Of a DNA stretch of 64,000 bases, positions 2,605-13,206 are shown in pieces. Every line of letters starts with the position of its first letter. The first letter of the stretch is position 1. A program made the translations under genes and the position numbers. The DNA is from Eledone cirrhosa (taxonomy: Eukaryota), in NCBI GenBank assembly GCA_964016885.1, contig OZ024741.1, positions 304,792,001 to 304,856,000 on the forward strand. Reading direction: 5' to 3'. A model generated the notes under the pieces. That model did not search any database. It had not been told where the DNA came from and saw nothing but the letters and a program-made list of their open reading frames with translations.

Positions 2605-2815
2605 TCAATTATTTTGTGAGTTTGATATCGAATAATAATCGATTCATTTGCAAGCAAACAGCCTCATTACGCTGTTTTTTAGATGACCATCACCATCCTT
2701 TTGTTCTAGCGGTGACATAGGATGGTGATGGTAAAAAAACATAGCATAAGGAGGTTGTTTGCTTGCAAATGAATTAAATCATTATTATTTGATATAAAAC
2801 TCACGAATGCATTGA
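2605..2815. repeat. Fold-back inverted repeat, ~85-bp arms
   Basis: GTGAGTTT..TTCATTTGCAAGCAAACAGCCTC..ACCATCACCATCCT mirrored by AGGATGGTGATGGT..GAGGTTGTTTGCTTGCAAATGAA..AAACTCAC. Confidence 0.85.
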
Positions 2816-3829
2816 CATATCCGCTATGTTAGAGCAAAAAACGAAATTCTAATTTTGTTTTTTTAATTATTTTATTAGTTAAGTGTTTGTAACAAATGGT
2901 TCTAATATAAAATTTATGTTGGAAGATTTAAATTTAAATAGGATCACTTTATAATTGGCTGTGAATCATAGAACAAGGTGATTTAGTATCAAAAAGATTA
3001 ATAGATTCTTTCAATTTAAGATATTACATACAATTATTGTGTGTGTATCAGTCAGTTGTATTTAGTAAATGATGAAAAAGTTGGAAGAAAAACAACTTTG
3101 ATTAAAGTTTTTACAATGAAGCTTTAAGTCAAGACTGGCTTTTTCAGGTGAGATTATTAAGGTCCCATGTGCAAGATATGCAAGGTTTTGAATTGTGGTA
3201 TTAACTATGTCCTGTACCACAGCAAAATATTCTTGAAAAGTACAAAACAGCAATATGCCTGTATAGCATTAAAAATTAAAATCTTTACCAGTGGACAGAT
3301 CATTGTGAAAATAATGTTTACAACAATCTTCCCACTATTAAAGATTTTAGATATTTTCTGCGAAATAATTACAGGGTGTTAGGAATTAAATGTGTATTGG
3401 TTTTCCTTAAAAAATTAATATTCATGTATGTGCTGAGGTTGTTCAATGGAAATAAGTTGTCATGTGTTCTTTGCAAAATAATTGTCATTGGGATGTTAGA
3501 CTTGGTCAGAAGTATTAACCCTACCATTAACATTTTTAAAAAAGACACTATGATTATCAAATAATTTTTTTAAATAATCAAAAATTTGGAGGGATTTAGT
3601 AATATAACTTTCTCATATTTAAACTGGTGCTTGAAACCTAGCTTAAAAGTTCTTAAAATTATGGCAGCAGGATATTAAATATAAACACTTTATAATAAAC
3701 AGCTTTGTATTGCAGAACCAAAGGCCATATTGGGTCGTTTGATATTAAAAGGGATAAGATGTGAGCTGTAAATTTCATTAGAAGGCACAACCAAGTTGAC
3801 AGGGTTCAGATGGCCAGTTATGCCATTCA

Positions 3830-4100
3830 CCATGGCTTAATGGTTAAGATCGTAAGGTTGTGAGTTGAGTAGCACGTAACATACTTTAACAAGACATTAT
3901 TTCACATTGCTCCAGTCTACACAACTGGAAAAAATAAGTTGTGTGACAACACTGATGACAAGCTGTATCAGCCTTTGCCTTTCCCTTGAAAGGCATTGGT
4001 GGCATGGAGAGGGGAGACTAGCATTCATGAACAACTGCTGGTCTTCCACAAAACACCTTACCCAGGTTTGCAGGTTTGCACCTTGGAGAACTTTCCAAGT
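3830..4100 (+). mobile_element. Degenerate tRNA-derived SINE (related copies ~31590-31715, ~41095-41360)
   Basis: A-box-like TGGCTTAATGGTTAAG head and shared body CAAGACA(T/C)T..ATTTCA..TTGCTCCAGTC.AC. Confidence 0.55.
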
Positions 4101-4437
4101 TCAGCATCATAGTCAGTCATGACCGGAAAGGGGGGGGGGGGGCTTTGCCTCCTCCATCTGCAATATTCTCAGACATGCTTCCAGAGTCTTTGGGGTCTCA
4201 GGATCTGAAACCTACCTTTCTACATCCATCCACACCTCCCAGGATAGTCACAAGCATGACGGCAGATTTTTCAGCATTAGATGAAAACTGCAATATATTT
4301 TTCAAACAAGCCCCTCTACCAAAACTCAGTTTACAAATTGTAAAAATTACTTTTTAAATACCAACCCACCTCTATTAAGGTATGAAGATATTCAAATTTA
4401 AGCCTGGGACTGAAATCTCATTATTACAATTACTGTA

Positions 4438-4595
4438 TCATCATCATCGTTTAACGTCTACCTTCCACACTAGCATGGGTTTAGACGGGAATTGTCCCAC
4501 GTGAGGCAAGATTGGTTGTCTTACTCATATAAGACTGCCTGGCAGGTTTTCTATGGCTGGATGCTCTTCCTAACACCAACCGCATTTACAGTGTA
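4438..4595 (-). mobile_element. RTE LINE 3'-end fragment with (CAT)n tail
   Basis: Matches the 3' UTR end of the RTE at 56465-56640. Confidence 0.8.
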
Positions 4596-4862
4596 TATAC
4601 TCATTTAGCAGTATTGGTTATAGATGTTATCGCCACTTTAGCAGGGTGGTAGAATCAGTGGTCGTTAGTTGCCAGTGTGGTAAGTGATAGTATCCTCGTT
4701 GGATTATCTTGTTGACATAGACGTGAGGGAAGGTCCCTCGATCTATTTACCATCTATTCACAATATTCCTTTCGTCAGGTCGCCAATTCCAGCAGCATGG
4801 ATTAAAGATGTTATTGAGACACGAGTAACATAACGACTTCAACCGCAGTAATTAGAGATGAA

Positions 4863-4877
4863 ACGTCGGGGTCACCA
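4863..4877 (-). other. tRNA-Trp-type primer binding site (TGGTGACCCCGACGT) in reverse orientation to pol
   Basis: Plus strand ACGTCGGGGTCACCA equals the 3' end of metazoan tRNA-Trp including CCA (recalled); directly abuts the first pol codon at 4878. Confidence 0.75.
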
Positions 4878-7113
4878 GGATTAAGGAATGCCGCTAGTAC
4901 TTTTCAGCGGTTTATGGATGAGGTTACTCGCGGCCTCGATTTCGTCTATACCTATATTGACGATCTGCTCATTGCTAGTTCTTCTCCAGAGCAGCATACG
5001 CACCATTTGAATCTTCTTTTCCGCCGATTGAAGGCGTATAATGTGCAGCTTAATGCACCCAAATGTGTTTTTGGTGCTGAGTCACTGACTTTCTTGGGTC
5101 ACGTCATCGATGCTGACGGAATTCGACCCCGGCCTGAGCGAGTTAAGGTCATAGAGGATTTGCCTCCACCGACCTCACTACGTCAGTTACGCCAGTTCTT
5201 AGGTCTGGTTAACTTTTATAGGCGTTTCGTGCCAAATTGTGCCAAGTTGCTTTTCTCCCTGACAGAAATTTTGAAAAATTGTCGGAGGAAGAACAAAGAT
5301 ATTTCTTTGACAGACACTCAACTTGCTGATTTTCAGCACGCCAAAACTGTTTTGGCTAATGCTTCGTTACTGACTCACCCGGTACCCGGTGCAAAGCTAA
5401 CGCTTTGTGTTGATGCATCGGATATCGCTGTGGGCGCAGTACTTCAGCAAAACATCAATGGTTACCAGCAACCGCTGGAGTTTTTTTCCAAAAAGCTAAA
5501 TCCTGCTGAGACGCGCTACAGCACCTTTGGAAGAGAGCTTTTAGCCATCTATTTGGCCGTGAAACATTTTTCACATGTGCTAGAGGGTAGACAATTTACT
5601 ATCCTCACTGACCATAAACCATTGACTTTTGCTTTGAGAGCGAAGGCCGATAAATACTCGCCCAGAGAGACGAGACACCTTGATTTCATCTCGCAATATA
5701 CGAGTGATATCCAGCACATTCCGGGTTCACTAAATACAGCGGCCGATGCTTTGTCCCGCTTACCCGTGACAGCGATCTCGTCACCCTCTGACATAGATCT
5801 GACTCGTTTGGCTGCGGATCAGCCTCCCCTTGAGTCACTGGATGTCACATCGCCCGAGTTTGCGAATTGCGAGATGAAATACTTGCCTCTGTCGACTGCA
5901 GTTGGCCAAATTCTCTGCGACGTCTCTTTGGACGTGCCTAGGCCCTTCGTTCCAGAGAATCATCGTCGGACCGTGTTTCTGGGATTACATTGTATCTCGT
6001 ATCCAGGATCTTCTGCCACAGCAAAGCTCATATCAGCTAGATTTTTCTGGCCAAATATGAGGCGTGAAATTGCTGCTTGGTGCCGTTCCTGCGTCGCTTG
6101 CCAGAGATCAAAGGTCCATCGACACGTCAAGGCTCCCCTGGGTACCTTTGCTAACCCAGATGCGCGTTTTTCACATATTCATATTGACATAGTGGGACCT
6201 TGGCCTGTCAGCGATGGTTTTTCTTATCTACTTACCGTCATTGACCGTTTTTCGAGATGGCCTGAGGCCATCCCCTTGAAAAACATCACCGCGTGCTCTT
6301 GTGTCTGGATGGATCTCTCGTTATGGAGTTCCATCCACAATAACTACCGACCGTGGACGACAGTTCGAGTCGAGCCTTTTCCTCGAGCTGTCAAAAATAA
6401 TTGGTGCTAAACGCATTCGAACTACGGCATACCATCCCGCTTCGAATGGTATGGTGGAGCGTTTTCACCGCCAACTGAAGGCCTCCTTAATGGCCTCAAT
6501 GGACTCGGCGCATTGGAGCGAGTACCTCCCTATTGTGCTACTAGGGATTCGGTCAACGGTGAAGGTCGACTTTGGATTTTCACCGGCCGAAGTACTGTAC
6601 GGTGCCCCTCTGACGTTGCCCGGGCAAATGCTTGCCCCTATCGATCTTGATGCCCAAGATCACGCTTCCTACGTGTCCCGTTTGCGCTCCTATTTCCAGG
6701 ATTTGCCGCCAATGGACACTAGGAAACAAACTGTCAAGACTGCTGTCCCGAGGGATATTGCCTCGTGGACGCATGTCTTTGTAAGGAATGATACGGTGAA
6801 GCCCCCGCTCACACAGCCTTACACTGGACCTTACCGTGTCTTAGCGCGCTCAGCTAAGCATTTCACGTTAGATATTAAGGGGTCCAGGGTGACAGTTACA
6901 TTAGACAGGCTTAAGCAGGCGCACCTTGATACGGACGCTGTGGTTCCTGATCCACGAACCCCTTCGTATTTGCCTGTTGAGCGAACGACTGTTCCTGATC
7001 CACCATCATCGCCTGTCCCTACACCACCACCATCGCCACGTTACAAGACCACGACCCGTTCAGGTCGTAGGGTCCACTGGCCCAAAAAACTTTGCAGCAC
7101 CGTCTATATTTAG
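4878..7113 (+). pseudogene. Gypsy pol fragment: RT (C-half) - RNase H - DDE integrase - GPY/F; frameshift near 6295
   Basis: GLRNAASTFQR, YIDD, VDAS/RELLAI/TDHKPL/ADALSR, zinc finger H..YPG..CVAC, HIDIVGP, TTDRG, GMVERFH, PYTGPY; RT-RH-IN order is Gypsy; split across ORFs 4914-6410 and 6301-7113. Confidence 0.95.
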
Positions 7114-7340
7114 ACTATGTTAGCTGCACCTTTTTTTTGGCCTCTGTGTTTCTGCTTTTTCTTTGCCTTGTTTTTTTTTATGCATGCATGTCGTTTTTTT
7201 TTAACATTTTTCAAATCCTTATTCTGGATTCAATTTTTGCTAGAGCGGATAGCTCCCCCTTGTTGCATTGTTCGCCATCTTACTCCACATGTGAGTAATG
7301 ACATCGATTTTCAATAATTTGAAAATCTGGTTCGAGGTAC

Positions 7341-7566
7341 TGTAGTAAGACGCCTCACGCTCCTTGATAGAACAACGCCGGTTGAGAACGCCAGAAAGAA
7401 AAGACAGACAGCCACTGGAAAGCCGACGGATCACACGCCAGATACCAGCCTCTGTACAACACCATTGTTTGTGCTACAACAAAAAATAAACGTATATTTC
7501 ATCTCTAATTTCTGCTGTTATTATGTCACTTGCATCTCGATAACATCTACAACTAATACTGCTAAA
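7341..7566 (+). repeat. Probable 3' LTR-like segment of the Gypsy element
   Basis: Begins TGTAG after degenerate PPT-like CTGGTTCGAGGTAC; AATAAA at 7485-7490; no direct-orientation partner found. Confidence 0.55.
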
Positions 7567-10250
7567 CTCATATATAAGCTGACCCCTATTTTATGTCTGA
7601 GAAATGAGCAAAAATCCAAATCCGATGTATAAACTGAAGCAGCTAATCAAATGTCACGGTTTTGAAATTCTCATTCATAGAAAATATATTTATGAAGTTT
7701 AATATTTAAAATGTTTTCAGTGTTTGTTTCAGAACTCCATTATGCAATGATTATTTTTACCAATTTCTGATTGTTTTGAAGGCCATATTCATTAAAAACA
7801 GAAAAAGCGAATTTCAAGTTGTGTGAATGAAACCATAGTGATATTCACCTCCAAAGCGAAAATATCTTAGCACATCATTTACATAAAATTTTGAAGGTGA
7901 AAATTGGTCAAAATATTGACTTCAAATATAAGCCAAACCCTATTTTACCATAGATTTTTTTTTTTTTTGTTACATATTTCTTGTTTTATATACAAGTATA
8001 TACAGTAGATAAAATTAGATTTCAGTTATTAAGTTAATTGTTTTACTAACCCTCTCATAATTATTGATTATTTTGATAAATTAAAATGCAATGGAAGTAT
8101 ATTCTTGTTAGAAATATGGTAACAAAAGGGTTAAAACTAACGAATACATAACACAAATATAAAATGTCTAAATTGCTTACATCAATATACTTTTAATTAT
8201 TAATGTGTTGCTACTCTAAAAACAAGTGATTTTTCAGAGTCTTATCATACACGACTCTTAAAAACACTTGCCTTAACCTTTTTGATACAAAACTGCCTAA
8301 ACTAGTCCTGATGTTTCAATATGGAGATGTTTATTTTAAAGTATTTGTATTTATATAAAAACTTTCCATCAAAGTTTTTATGCAAGAAGTTTGGTAAGTT
8401 ATGTTCCAAACACCAGTTTAATAACAAGAAAGTTCAGTATATATCTAAATCCTTCCAAATTCTTAGCTATTTTAAAAACTACTTGCAAATCGTAAGCAGT
8501 GTCTTTCATTAGAAAAATGTTAATGAAAGGATTAATTAGTTTCTTACTGAATAATTTGAATAAATTATTTCAGCACACAATTTCACAATCACAATTTTAT
8601 TACAAGCACATTTCAAGAGTGCTGCATCATAACTACTTTAAATTAGACAAGATACTATTCATTGAATAAAAATTTATGGAATACATAACTATACATTTAA
8701 TCTATAAAAATAGACAAGCTGTGTAGTAGGTGAAGAATTTTCATAAAAGTACATAATTCGGAATTCATACAGAATGTGTTTCTGTTTACTTAAGATTTTA
8801 CTTGATTATTGTAATATCCCAACTATTTTCTTGTAAATATTTCAATTTATTTAACTTGTGCCATGATAAAGAGCACCCATTCTCCCTTGTAAGGTGATAC
8901 TGCTGGAGTCATGATAAAATGCTTCCAGTACATGCTTGGTAGAATCCAAGTCAAAAATGAACTTAAGAAAGACATTATCAACTGAACAGTCTAGCCTCTA
9001 AATAGAACAACCCATACAAGCACGGAAAATAAACATTAAAAAAAGATGATTATCTAATATGTCTCAGCAGCATGACAATTAACTTCTATAAAAGACAAAA
9101 GATGCATAAAAGGATAGCAACCTCAAGATGAATGTTGTAAAGAGACTCAAAGTGAAATTAGTACAAGTCATAATTAGGTTGTGGTGTGTACTAGACACAT
9201 CATCATCATTGTTTAACATCTATTTTTCATGGGTTAGCAAAGCTGTCACGTAATATAGTTAGACTGGTCAGGTAACCGTGTTTTGCTCATATGTTTCATT
9301 TTGGCTTATTTTCTATTTCTGAATGACCTTCCTAATTAATGCCAATCACTTTACAGCATGTACTGGGAGCATTTTATTGTGACACAAACACTACCACTTA
9401 AAGTGGAATCACACATAACTAAAACAATACAAATAATTAGAGAAACAAAAACCCAGTTCACTAAGGGAGAGCTCCACTCAATATTGTACACAAACATTTC
9501 ACAAGTCTTCATTCCCTATAGCTTGCTGAAACTGAGAAAGCTACATATAGTTGAACAGCTTTGAAGAACAATTCAACCCTGTATGATAATACCATACACA
9601 AAGTCAGGATTAGCAACAAATTCAGTTTTGGGGCAGGTTATTTTTTTTCCGTGGGCTGTTCCTATCCCCTCACTCCAGCCACCCTCTAAGCACAGGTTGT
9701 GCTGATCTATTAATCATTACATAATTTTTCAGAGCTAGAGAAAAAGTACCAAACCTAAAAGAATAACCAAGTACATAAAATATATTAACTCTTAAAATCA
9801 TGTAATGATTGAGCAGAAAAATACTAAAAATGCAATTTTAATTCAAATTTTATAGTATTCTTTCTAGTGAACAGATTGTAAGAATCTGTGATGCAGTCAC
9901 CGTACTGTTTTGTACTTTTTAAGAATGTTTAGCTAATGTGGTTTCATGTGATAAATTAAGACTATGAGAAGAGGCTGTACTGGTTTGCTAGGTAAAAAAG
10001 TGCTGACAATGTCAGACTGAAACTAAATATACAAGTGATGGTGAGGCCAGTCAGATCTACAGTTATTGAATTTCACAGATGAAATAACACAAGATTGTGA
10101 AAAATGACATGCATAGAGGAACAAAAGCAAAGACAATGTTTCAAATACAGCATGACAGCTATTCAATAAATACAAATTAATATAATAAGTACTAGAATGG
10201 AATAGGTGCTGGGGATGATGTAATCAGTTAAAACACTCAAAGGCAGTGTC

Positions 10251-10478: not shown

Positions 10479-12492
10479 AACGTTTAACATCCATATTCCA
10501 TGCTTGCATGGGTTTGGACGGGAGTTTTCCCACTTGAGGCAAGAGTGGTTGTCTTGCGGGTTTTCTATGGCTGGATGCCCTTCCTAACACCAACCACATT
10601 TACAGTGTGGAACTGGGAGGTTTTTACTGTTACCTACACGGCCACATTACAGCGTGGACTGTGCTTTTTTTGTCGCAACACCTACACGACCTCATTTGTT
10701 TCGGGCTGGATGTTGTGGTACCAACATAACTTTACATTGAAAGGGGTGGTGTGGATGGGGTGGGGGCAGTGGGACGGGGGGGGGGGTTATTTTGTTAGAG
10801 GTGCCTACTGACTGTAGTAGGTTTCACTTTGTACTTAGGTAAGGCGGGTCTTCTCTATTACTGTGTAGCACCAAAGCTCTTGGTCCAGTGACATTGTCTT
10901 GGAGAGGTGTAAGTGTGTGAGGTCGGAATTTATCAAGTCGTCCCAGGTTTTTCTGAGTCTGCCTACTCCGTGGCTACCGTCTATTTTTATTGCCCTGCAC
11001 TTTTTTTATACAGCTGTCGTCTTTCATGCGCATCACGTGACCATACCAACGTAGCCTTCTCTCGAGTAGACAACATCTGATCCCTCTTATTTCTAATTTT
11101 TCCCTTAGTTCGTTTATGTTTTGCCGTTCACGTATATTACTATTACACATCCAGCGGAGCATGCAAGCTTCATTCCTCTCCAGTCTGCGTATATCCTCTG
11201 CACACAATGCCCAGGTCTGACTGCCATGCAACATTGCTGTTCGTATGCAGGCATCATACAGCCTGCCTTTCATTTTTAGAGAGAACCCTTTAGCGGCTAA
11301 TAGTGGTATAAGCTCTCTGAACTTTTTACATCCAGTTCTGACTCTAGCTACTGTACTTTCAGAGCACCCTCCCCCACTGCTGATTTTGTCACCCAGGTAA
11401 CGGAAGCTGTCCACTATTTCTATAGAACCATCTGTGCAATGGAATGAGCTAGTATTCTGTGGGCACTTGCTGCTACTTATTGCACCAGAGCACCGGCCAC
11501 ATATAAAATCTATGTTCTTAGTTAGCTTACCTGTGATCCCACTACATCTTTTATGCACACATACTTTGCATTTGGGACATAAAATGGAGTTTCTACCTAC
11601 TCTTTTCCTACACACTGAGCATGGCCATTTCCCGGATGGGACCGGCGCCCTATTTTCCTTCCTACAAACTAGAACTTTAGTCTTAGACAGGTTAATTTTA
11701 AGGCCTTTTATTCTAGGCCATGCTTCCATGTTTGGAATTTCTTCTCTAGTTTGGCCATTGATTCAGCTGAGTGTTAGATCATCTGCGTATAGGAGTTCCC
11801 ACGGGCAGCCGGTCTTGAACTCCACTGTTATAGCCTGAAGGGCGATAATAGTAGGGGGCTAAGAACGGAGCCCTGATGAACACCAACTTTTACGCTAAAC
11901 TCTTCACTATATTCGTTGTTAATTCTAACCTTGCTGACTGTTTCTTTATACATGGCTTGTATAGCTCTCACAAGCCATTCATCAACACCTAGTTTTCTAA
12001 GAGCCCACCAGCTAATGGAACGGAGGACTCTGTCGAAGGCTTTCTCCAAGTCGACAAAAGCTAAGTATAGGGGTTTACTTTTAGCTAGGTACTTCTCCTG
12101 TAGTTGTCGTACAATGAAAAGAGCGTCTGTGGTATTTTTGCCTGACACAAACCCGAACTGCATTTCATCTAGATCAATTCTCTCTCTGGTTAGTTGCGCT
12201 ATTACTTTTTCTGTGACCTTCATGACCTGGTCGATTAATTTAATGCCTCTATAGTTACTCCTATCTAGGGCATCTCCTTTACCCTTGTAGCAGTTAATGA
12301 TGATGCTGCTACGCCAGTCCTTCAGAACAACCTCATTCTGTATGACTTGGTTTACTATCCGGGTGACCACGGTGTGTCCCACCGTTCCAGAAGCTTTCAG
12401 CATTTCAGCAACTATTTCCGAAGGCCCAGCCGCCTTACCCGTCTTCATATCTTTGATTGCCCAGCCGCCTGACCCGTCTTCATATCTTTGAT
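10479..12492 (-). mobile_element. 5'-truncated RTE LINE (family 1), frameshifted RT
   Basis: ORFs 11828-12448 and 10974-11729 nearly identical to the 56868-58500 protein (FVDLEKAFD, GVHQGSVLSP, RRLRWYGHVMRM); same 3' UTR. Confidence 0.95.
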
Positions 12493-13206
12493 TAACATCC
12501 TGTAGCTATTTAGTAGAATGTCTAAAAATGGGTCTTAATTCAAATTTGCAGTAAACTATAGACTTACTTTTAATGTGATGTAGTGAGTGCTGTTTTGTAC
12601 TTTTCAAAAATTCTTACTAATAAAGTTTAATGTGGTACAGAACATTATGAGTTTAAGTGTTTATTATTTAACTAGAAAACTTTTATAATTTTATTTAAGA
12701 ACCAGCTAAAATAAGTTATATTATCTTCAAAATTATTTGAAAATCATTCCAAAAGGGTTAAAATCCAAATAAACTAGTGATGTTCTGCATCAGCAAAAAT
12801 ACAAATATTTCAAACAGTGGAATAAGTTTTATATTTATGTATAAAACCTATTCCACTATTTCATCATCATTAACATTTGATTTCCCTTCTAGCAAATGTT
12901 TGACGAAATGTCAAGGACCAAATCAGTACTCAATCAGAGCCACTGATTTCACAATACAGAGAGCACTGTGTATTCTATCATGGCACCAGTACTGGGGAGG
13001 TTGTCATATCGTATTTTTTTGTGGCAGCAGCATTATGGAAATGATGTCCGTTACATCTGAAGAGTTCTCTCAATGCTTTTTTTGGAATGGTTTCTACAGC
13101 TGGATGATCTTCCTATCACCAATCACATTACAACGGTATATTTTTCGTGGCATGTTATGATTGGAGAGTCCTCTCAACACTTCTTGCATAAAAATGTTCA
13201 GCGAAC

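Follow-up and report, generated by a model that had tools for sequence, protein, structure and literature searches.

How can the enzymes of a Gypsy retrotransposon come to lie between inverted termini, inside a single target-site duplication (TSD) and without a pair of direct long terminal repeats (LTRs)? The question is raised by a unit of 2963 bp at positions 4604-7566 of a 64,000-nucleotide stretch of the Eledone cirrhosa genome (contig OZ024741.1, positions 304,792,001 to 304,856,000; hereafter the window, whose coordinates are used throughout). Its two ends (4604-4632 and 7538-7566) form a 29-bp inverted repeat with 27/29 identical positions (93.1%, E 8e-6 against the window), the word CTCA stands on both sides of it (4600-4603 and 7567-7570), and no direct LTR pair was found when one was looked for in the 2963 bp. 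These features had been described in an initial annotation of the sequence, and re-reading and self-comparison of the window confirmed them. We conclude that the unit is not a new family but a chimeric insertion, likely a dead end, which belongs to a recurring class with a U5 end (the 3' region of an LTR) at both termini. Its probable origin is the priming of two co-packaged minus-strand cDNAs on each other; the resulting linear DNA would have had two U5 ends and been integrated in one step.

The coding part of the unit lies on the plus strand. The Pfam matches are the C-terminal part only of a reverse transcriptase (RT; RVT_1 profile positions 122-205, at 4878-5108), RNase H (about 5390-5700), and, in an integrase region that begins at about 5950, the H2C2 domain and the start of rve. 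The integrase frame is broken near 6291, its second frame carries a GPY motif, and neither gag nor protease appeared among the unit's frames and Pfam matches. A genome search with the right end of the unit returned 1150 candidates; 38 of them, fetched with 9 kb upstream, were mostly 5.5-kb elements (family A) with two direct 226-bp LTRs, a primer-binding site (PBS) one base after the 5' LTR and 4-bp TSDs. The A LTR starts with TGTAGT, ends with CTGCTAAA and is TSD-bounded; the PBS, TGGTGACC(CC)GACG, agrees with the tRNA-Trp motif printed in PMC2582038, which is a motif match only; the CHCC (CX2HX9CX3C) Gag signature is present in 22/26 full-length copies; and the gag and pol frames overlap. 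A U3 start with a matching 4-bp TSD was seen in 116 of the 173 ends that were read from A and from the partner family B described below. As to the PBS, 59 of 78 sites read are two C shorter and 9 of 78 have the longer form; the short form prevails among young copies.

According to the available part of PMC2582038, CsRn1-like elements have LTRs reading TGT...AAA or ATA, a 4-bp TSD, a tRNA-Trp PBS and a CHCC Gag, and family A is, by these four features, a CsRn1-type Ty3/Gypsy element. It is like the members of this clade described there (CsRn1, PwRn1, and AgCR) also in its overlapping frames and its GPY integrase. Because CsRn1-like elements end in TGT...AAA, the TTTAG...CTAAA termini, which had been taken as unusual, are the normal U5 end of the family. 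The right part of the unit is, as judged by alignment, the 3' half of such an ordinary direct-LTR element: it comprises the 3' part of pol (4878-7113, plus strand; 98.4% identical to a full-length copy, A positions 2792-5492), a putative plus-strand primer tract (7320-7340, plus strand; A 5246-5272 and B 2113-2139 are 85% identical) and the complete 226-bp 3' LTR (7341-7566, plus strand), whose last 29 bp are the right arm of the inverted repeat. The unit differs from the CsRn1 clade in that it has no 5' LTR, gag or protease, and in that its left end is the inverted LTR tip of another family.

This other family was found by a genome search with the left end of the unit, whose 1464 candidates match only 4604-4866, so that the search of both ends, which had been proposed as a check, resolved two parents with direct LTRs, A on the right and B on the left. 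Family B has a 554-bp LTR, found solo or within a 2.7-kb two-LTR element, and 4604-4866 (minus strand) aligns at 98% identity with positions 554 to 289 of B LTRs; it is the inverted 3' 263 bp of the LTR, with U5 and probably most of the R region. The left arm (4604-4632, minus strand) is the U5 tip of B (B 526-554 and A 198-226 are 93% identical), and the 29-bp inverted repeat is a tip common to both families, inverted from B and forward from A. Next to it, 4863-4877 (minus strand) is by motif comparison an inverted tRNA-Trp-type PBS of the longer form, which stops exactly at the PBS 5' edge. Instead of the two direct LTRs and forward PBS of a canonical LTR retrotransposon, the unit has one A LTR, one inverted partial B LTR and an inverted PBS. 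The B piece is inferred to be about the size expected of a B minus-strand strong-stop DNA, a length judged from the U3/R crossover in a chimeric copy (L122), where the B and A LTRs change over approximately 10-15 nt beyond the end of the piece.

In one natural 2687-bp copy of B the longest open reading frame (ORF) has 115 aa; the LTRs, PBS and polypurine tract (PPT) are kept and there is no pol. This copy has no similarity to A beyond the termini, leader and PPT, except for one 20-codon patch, and the two families have in common the U3 start, an R/U5 block, the last 29 bp, the PBS, the leader and the PPT. Because B has no ORF over 115 aa and has these cis-signals in common with A, it is probably a non-autonomous partner of A. 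Non-autonomous LTR partners of autonomous elements are known as the TRIM (terminal-repeat retrotransposon in miniature) and LARD (large retrotransposon derivative) types. B resembles them in being non-coding, with two LTRs, a PBS, a PPT and cis-signals common with its autonomous element; what sets A and B apart is that they form chimeras, direct as well as inverted, at a frequency that can be measured. The shared cis-signals, together with A/B chimeras that have TSDs, would imply that A and B are packaged together. Direct A/B chimeras with TSDs occur at loci L067, L068, L176, L210, and L133, and include elements with LTRs of two families and a mosaic solo LTR. In the B copy at L099:3514-6200 the LTR contains, at two internal points, a PBS-like word preceded by an LTR-end-like word, which gives the impression of an assembly from old LTR/PBS units; related B-like starts give over 1000 matches in the genome. 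Tandem arrays of B with shared LTRs, and deleted A copies repeated with the same flanks, were noted at L181, C1:431.64 Mb and L095/L096.

We then have to ask whether A and B entered the site together. The right flank of the unit (7571-7760, plus strand) is an old host repeat, presumably MITE-like (miniature inverted-repeat transposable element), with 1839 candidates in the genome, and comparison with its paralogues places its first bases to the left of the unit, at about 4594-4603. Among 24 paralogues, 13-22 per column agree with the six left-flank bases of the window before a CTCA-like word, and this agreement drops to 1-3 at columns -20 to -17. Because the flanks together make up one repeat, in which the CTCA-like word stands once, the TSD is, on this comparison, real and the unit entered as one piece; a merely coincidental CTCA, which had been named as a way in which the earlier description could fail, does not fit these paralogues. 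The one TSD also means a single event. The alternative of two independent neighbouring insertions with a later deletion and a chance CTCA, or of a mis-assembly, can appeal to the abundance of both families (over 1000 candidates per search) and to a joint unbridged by any read examined, and we consider it barely tenable given a host repeat that runs through both flanks with CTCA present once, and the TSDs and integrase signature of the other inverted units described below. In public contigs and restriction-site-associated DNA (RAD) reads of other samples, no listed piece bridged the junction and no clear empty allele was seen; the Logan contigs are fragmented over the repeat and the RAD reads have almost no depth at 4860-5003. 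A joint from 4581 to 7588 in one sample was discarded, as its 21-nt side is among many comparable chance joints.

The 32-nt junction of the window occurs once in the genome with up to 2 mismatches allowed, and the unit is not an amplified family bounded by terminal inverted repeats (TIRs). To see how often two U5 ends occur together, we started from 364 exact 28-mer U5 ends in the genome, of which 165 with a following GT were left out as PBS-side ends, not individually checked. The other 199 gave 187 listed ends (12 further were not listed); for 173 of these the fetched DNA was read, and the other 14 were assigned to direct pairs by coordinates alone. The 173 ends comprise 57 two-LTR elements and 52 solo LTRs, each with a TSD match, 10 ends that make up six U5-U5 units with TSD, two inverted ends without a clear TSD, four direct A/B chimeras and three internal double inversions, both classes with TSD, and 45 ends that are truncated or lack a TSD match. 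A seventh U5-U5 unit with TSD (L086) comes from the first sample, outside the census. Five units have B in minus and A in plus orientation (the window, L062, L081, L086, and L093) and two are B/B (L104 and L106). They range from 1502 to 4158 bp, every junction is different, the exact microhomology at the joints is 0-6 nt, and all of them consist of the 5' minus strand of one element followed by the plus strand of another up to its U5 end. In L104 and L106 the arms are self-complementary at 97% identity over 1495 bp and 798 bp, respectively. Two inverted loci without a clear TSD (L085 and L092) were not counted as U5-U5 units; neither was L240 (C1:163.72 Mb), a candidate inverted pair that turned out to be a complex palindrome, truncated at its right end, from an older B-like family.

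The same architecture has thus had at least seven independent origins, each with a junction of its own, and "a one-off aberrant cDNA", as one of the two initial readings had it, is too weak a description. The other of these, an undescribed Gypsy derivative bounded by TIRs and mobile as a whole, would account for inverted ends, a 4-bp TSD and an integrase region between them, and it is extremely improbable: the junction is single-copy, each of the eight inverted units has its own size and junction, the LTRs of the parent are direct, and the unit has no gag, protease or full RT and a broken integrase frame.

The target sites bear on the enzyme involved. Canonical A/B sites have a palindromic preference, W-T-R|NNNN|Y-A-W, and TATA is their commonest TSD (15/116). 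The TSD matches in seven of eight U5-U5 units, and the chance of such a 4-bp match, given the TSDs of the family itself, is p 0.028 per unit. The mean target-site score is 3.0 for the seven units, compared with 2.2 for canonical sites and -3.3 for random ones, and none of 2857 random site sets scored as high as the seven units; one of them, L093, has a weak score (-0.5). Because of the TSD matches and these scores, we infer that the integrase placed each unit as one piece, which shows, as far as insertion sites can record it, that in a natural genome DNA with a U5 end on each side is a substrate for a Gypsy integrase. In fact, the initial annotation had already proposed a one-piece integration through two U5 ends, and this part stands; its idea of two copies of the same end does not, as the ends come from A and B and share only the 29-bp tip.

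The remaining question is how a DNA with two U5 ends is made. In the origin that we favour, two tRNA-primed minus strands would prime on each other with their 3' ends, and the product would be a linear DNA with a U5 end on each side, which the integrase of A would likely insert in one step; judging from standard LTR replication, neither a plus-strand (PPT) primer nor the second strand transfer would be required. For the window copy, the B strong-stop DNA would have landed just behind a PBS, and the strand would have copied this PBS to the cut 5' end of the RNA, stalled where the second strand transfer was due, and jumped from there onto an A minus strand within RT. Minus strands would await the second transfer near the PBS, where some of the breaks cluster: of 16 break ends, three are no more than 25 nt from a PBS, compared with 0.26 expected (p 0.002, in a post hoc test). 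Template switching has other products in these families as well, the four direct A/B chimeras and the three internal double inversions with TSD. The 2-nt-shorter PBS of 59/78 sites might weaken the normal second transfer. A mirror case is L239:2526-3479 (C1:51.570-51.571 Mb): both of its termini are U3, its TSD is CATA and its joint carries an inverted PBS, a structure to be expected from two plus-strand strong-stop DNAs. One arm of L239 carries a SINE-like (short interspersed element) insert with its own duplication.

The main rival, which we hold to be unlikely while giving it real weight, is that two separate linear cDNAs, A and B, each supplied one U5 end to a single intasome and that the host joined their trimmed far ends. 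It accounts for the TSD, the target signature, the variable truncation and the short microhomology; L104 and L081 end 13 and 163 nt short of the full cDNA end, as if resected; and separate donor ends have a precedent in the concerted-integration assays performed in vitro (PMC11054761, in the part available). However, it explains poorly the R-sized piece and isolated inverted PBS of the window, the clustering of breaks at the PBS edge and the jump of L239 into the PBS tail. Furthermore, it predicts U3-U3 units about as frequent as U5-U5 units, and there are 0/112 of them in young A/B, a difference that is not significant. Auto- or inter-integration in the particle, which would have made the inverted segment before the chromosomal insertion, was already weakened by the junction sequences and is quite improbable. 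Double inversions with normal ends do exist: L122, L105, and L147 have normal U3 and U5 ends, a TSD and an internal inverted segment, as from a double switch. In addition, L064/L241 (C2:149.486-149.491 Mb), which looks like an autointegration product, joins a 3' part of A, whose U5 end lacks 2 nt, to an inverted 5' part of A at an internal position of the opposite strand; it is the sole opposed pair of A starts, has no matching TSD and is not a U3-U3 unit. However, autointegration would be expected to leave a processed LTR end at the joint, and a complete LTR terminus is found at 0/7 U5-U5 joints. A fold-back or hairpin at the joint of the window was also looked for, and nothing beyond shuffled sequences was found (z -0.19).

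Several observations weigh against the origin by mutual priming. Most break ends (13/16) are not near the PBS, the microhomology of 0-6 nt is equally compatible with host end-joining, and there is none at the PBS/RT joint of the window, whose PBS piece may just as well have been copied directly from a free tRNA. The strong-stop size of the B piece is an estimate, no reads of other samples bridge the joint, and the mutual priming itself would be read from genomic insertions, with no cDNA intermediate observed. U5 at both termini with a TSD was found in 6/183 surveyed insertions (3.3%, 95% confidence interval 1.2-7.0%), a value that is biased upward by the double sampling of inverted units and covers exact 28-mer ends only; set against 0/112 U3-U3 clusters, the excess is not established (Fisher p 0.086). 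Moreover, the inverted L085 has no clean TSD, and L239 is a U3-U3 unit with a TSD, in a related B-like family.

Errors of this kind have relatives. Retroviral RT is known to switch templates between nascent strands, which gives inverted segments in defective proviruses. These differ in that mostly one U3 and one U5 end are kept. Our literature search found no account of U5-U5 units, nor of germline-fixed ones made from two families, most of the older virology papers being outside its reach. Because retroviral inversion errors are known and the older papers were not searchable, the novelty of the mechanism is uncertain. In the available part of PMC2582038, the description of CsRn1 mentions neither forms with two U5 ends nor a non-coding partner.

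Among transposons, the unit recalls DIRS-1 in its inverted terminal repeats around RT and RNase H, as far as partial sources on DIRS-1 go. However, it has a DDE-type integrase and a 4-bp TSD, whereas DIRS elements use a tyrosine recombinase, and no tyrosine recombinase family is among its Pfam matches, which have Integrase_H2C2 and rve instead. It is like Ginger in its inverted ends, 4-bp TSD and Gypsy-type integrase region, and has the opposed-LTR layout proposed for the origin of Ginger1. In the part of PMC2836005 available, Ginger1 and Ginger2 have 40-270-bp TIRs that start with TGTNR, lack RT and RNase H, and exist as copies of one unit. In contrast, the unit described here has a 29-bp inverted repeat that starts with TTTAG, keeps part of RT and RNase H, and has a junction found once, every U5-U5 unit being unique. 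Bao et al. (2010; PMC2836005, same part) called the path from LTR retrotransposon to DNA transposon unclear and proposed that two opposed LTRs around an integrase region, the 3' LTR of one element and an LTR of a second, became the Ginger1 TIRs. That origin would involve two incidental insertions, whereas the units described here are single events by their one TSD.

In the surroundings of the unit, an unrelated repeat that we infer to be SINE-like, with many copies in the window, occupies 4437-4594 (plus strand) of the left flank, and broken RT frames of the long interspersed element (LINE) type, judged by eye, lie at 10974-12505 (minus strand).

With no gag, no protease, only half of RT and no LTR placed as a forward promoter, the unit itself is likely a dead end. 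Its class suggests that LTR replication can probably do without plus-strand priming and the second strand transfer, and it presents the opposed-LTR architecture named by Bao et al. for the Ginger1 TIRs in one event. LTR finders would miss such units because they need direct repeats, and TIR finders would mislabel them; L104 and L106, with their long inverted arms, are candidate hairpin sources of small RNAs. We tentatively extend this to the possibility, which we do not consider probable, that CsRn1-type elements routinely make DNAs with two like ends (U5-U5, also U3-U3) by mutual priming of strands of the same polarity. If so, a few percent of germline insertions would be TIR-bounded, integrase-containing units made in one step, the hitherto hypothetical intermediate between Gypsy and Ginger would have a living route, and the family could be silenced through the long hairpins, whose arms reach 1.5 kb.

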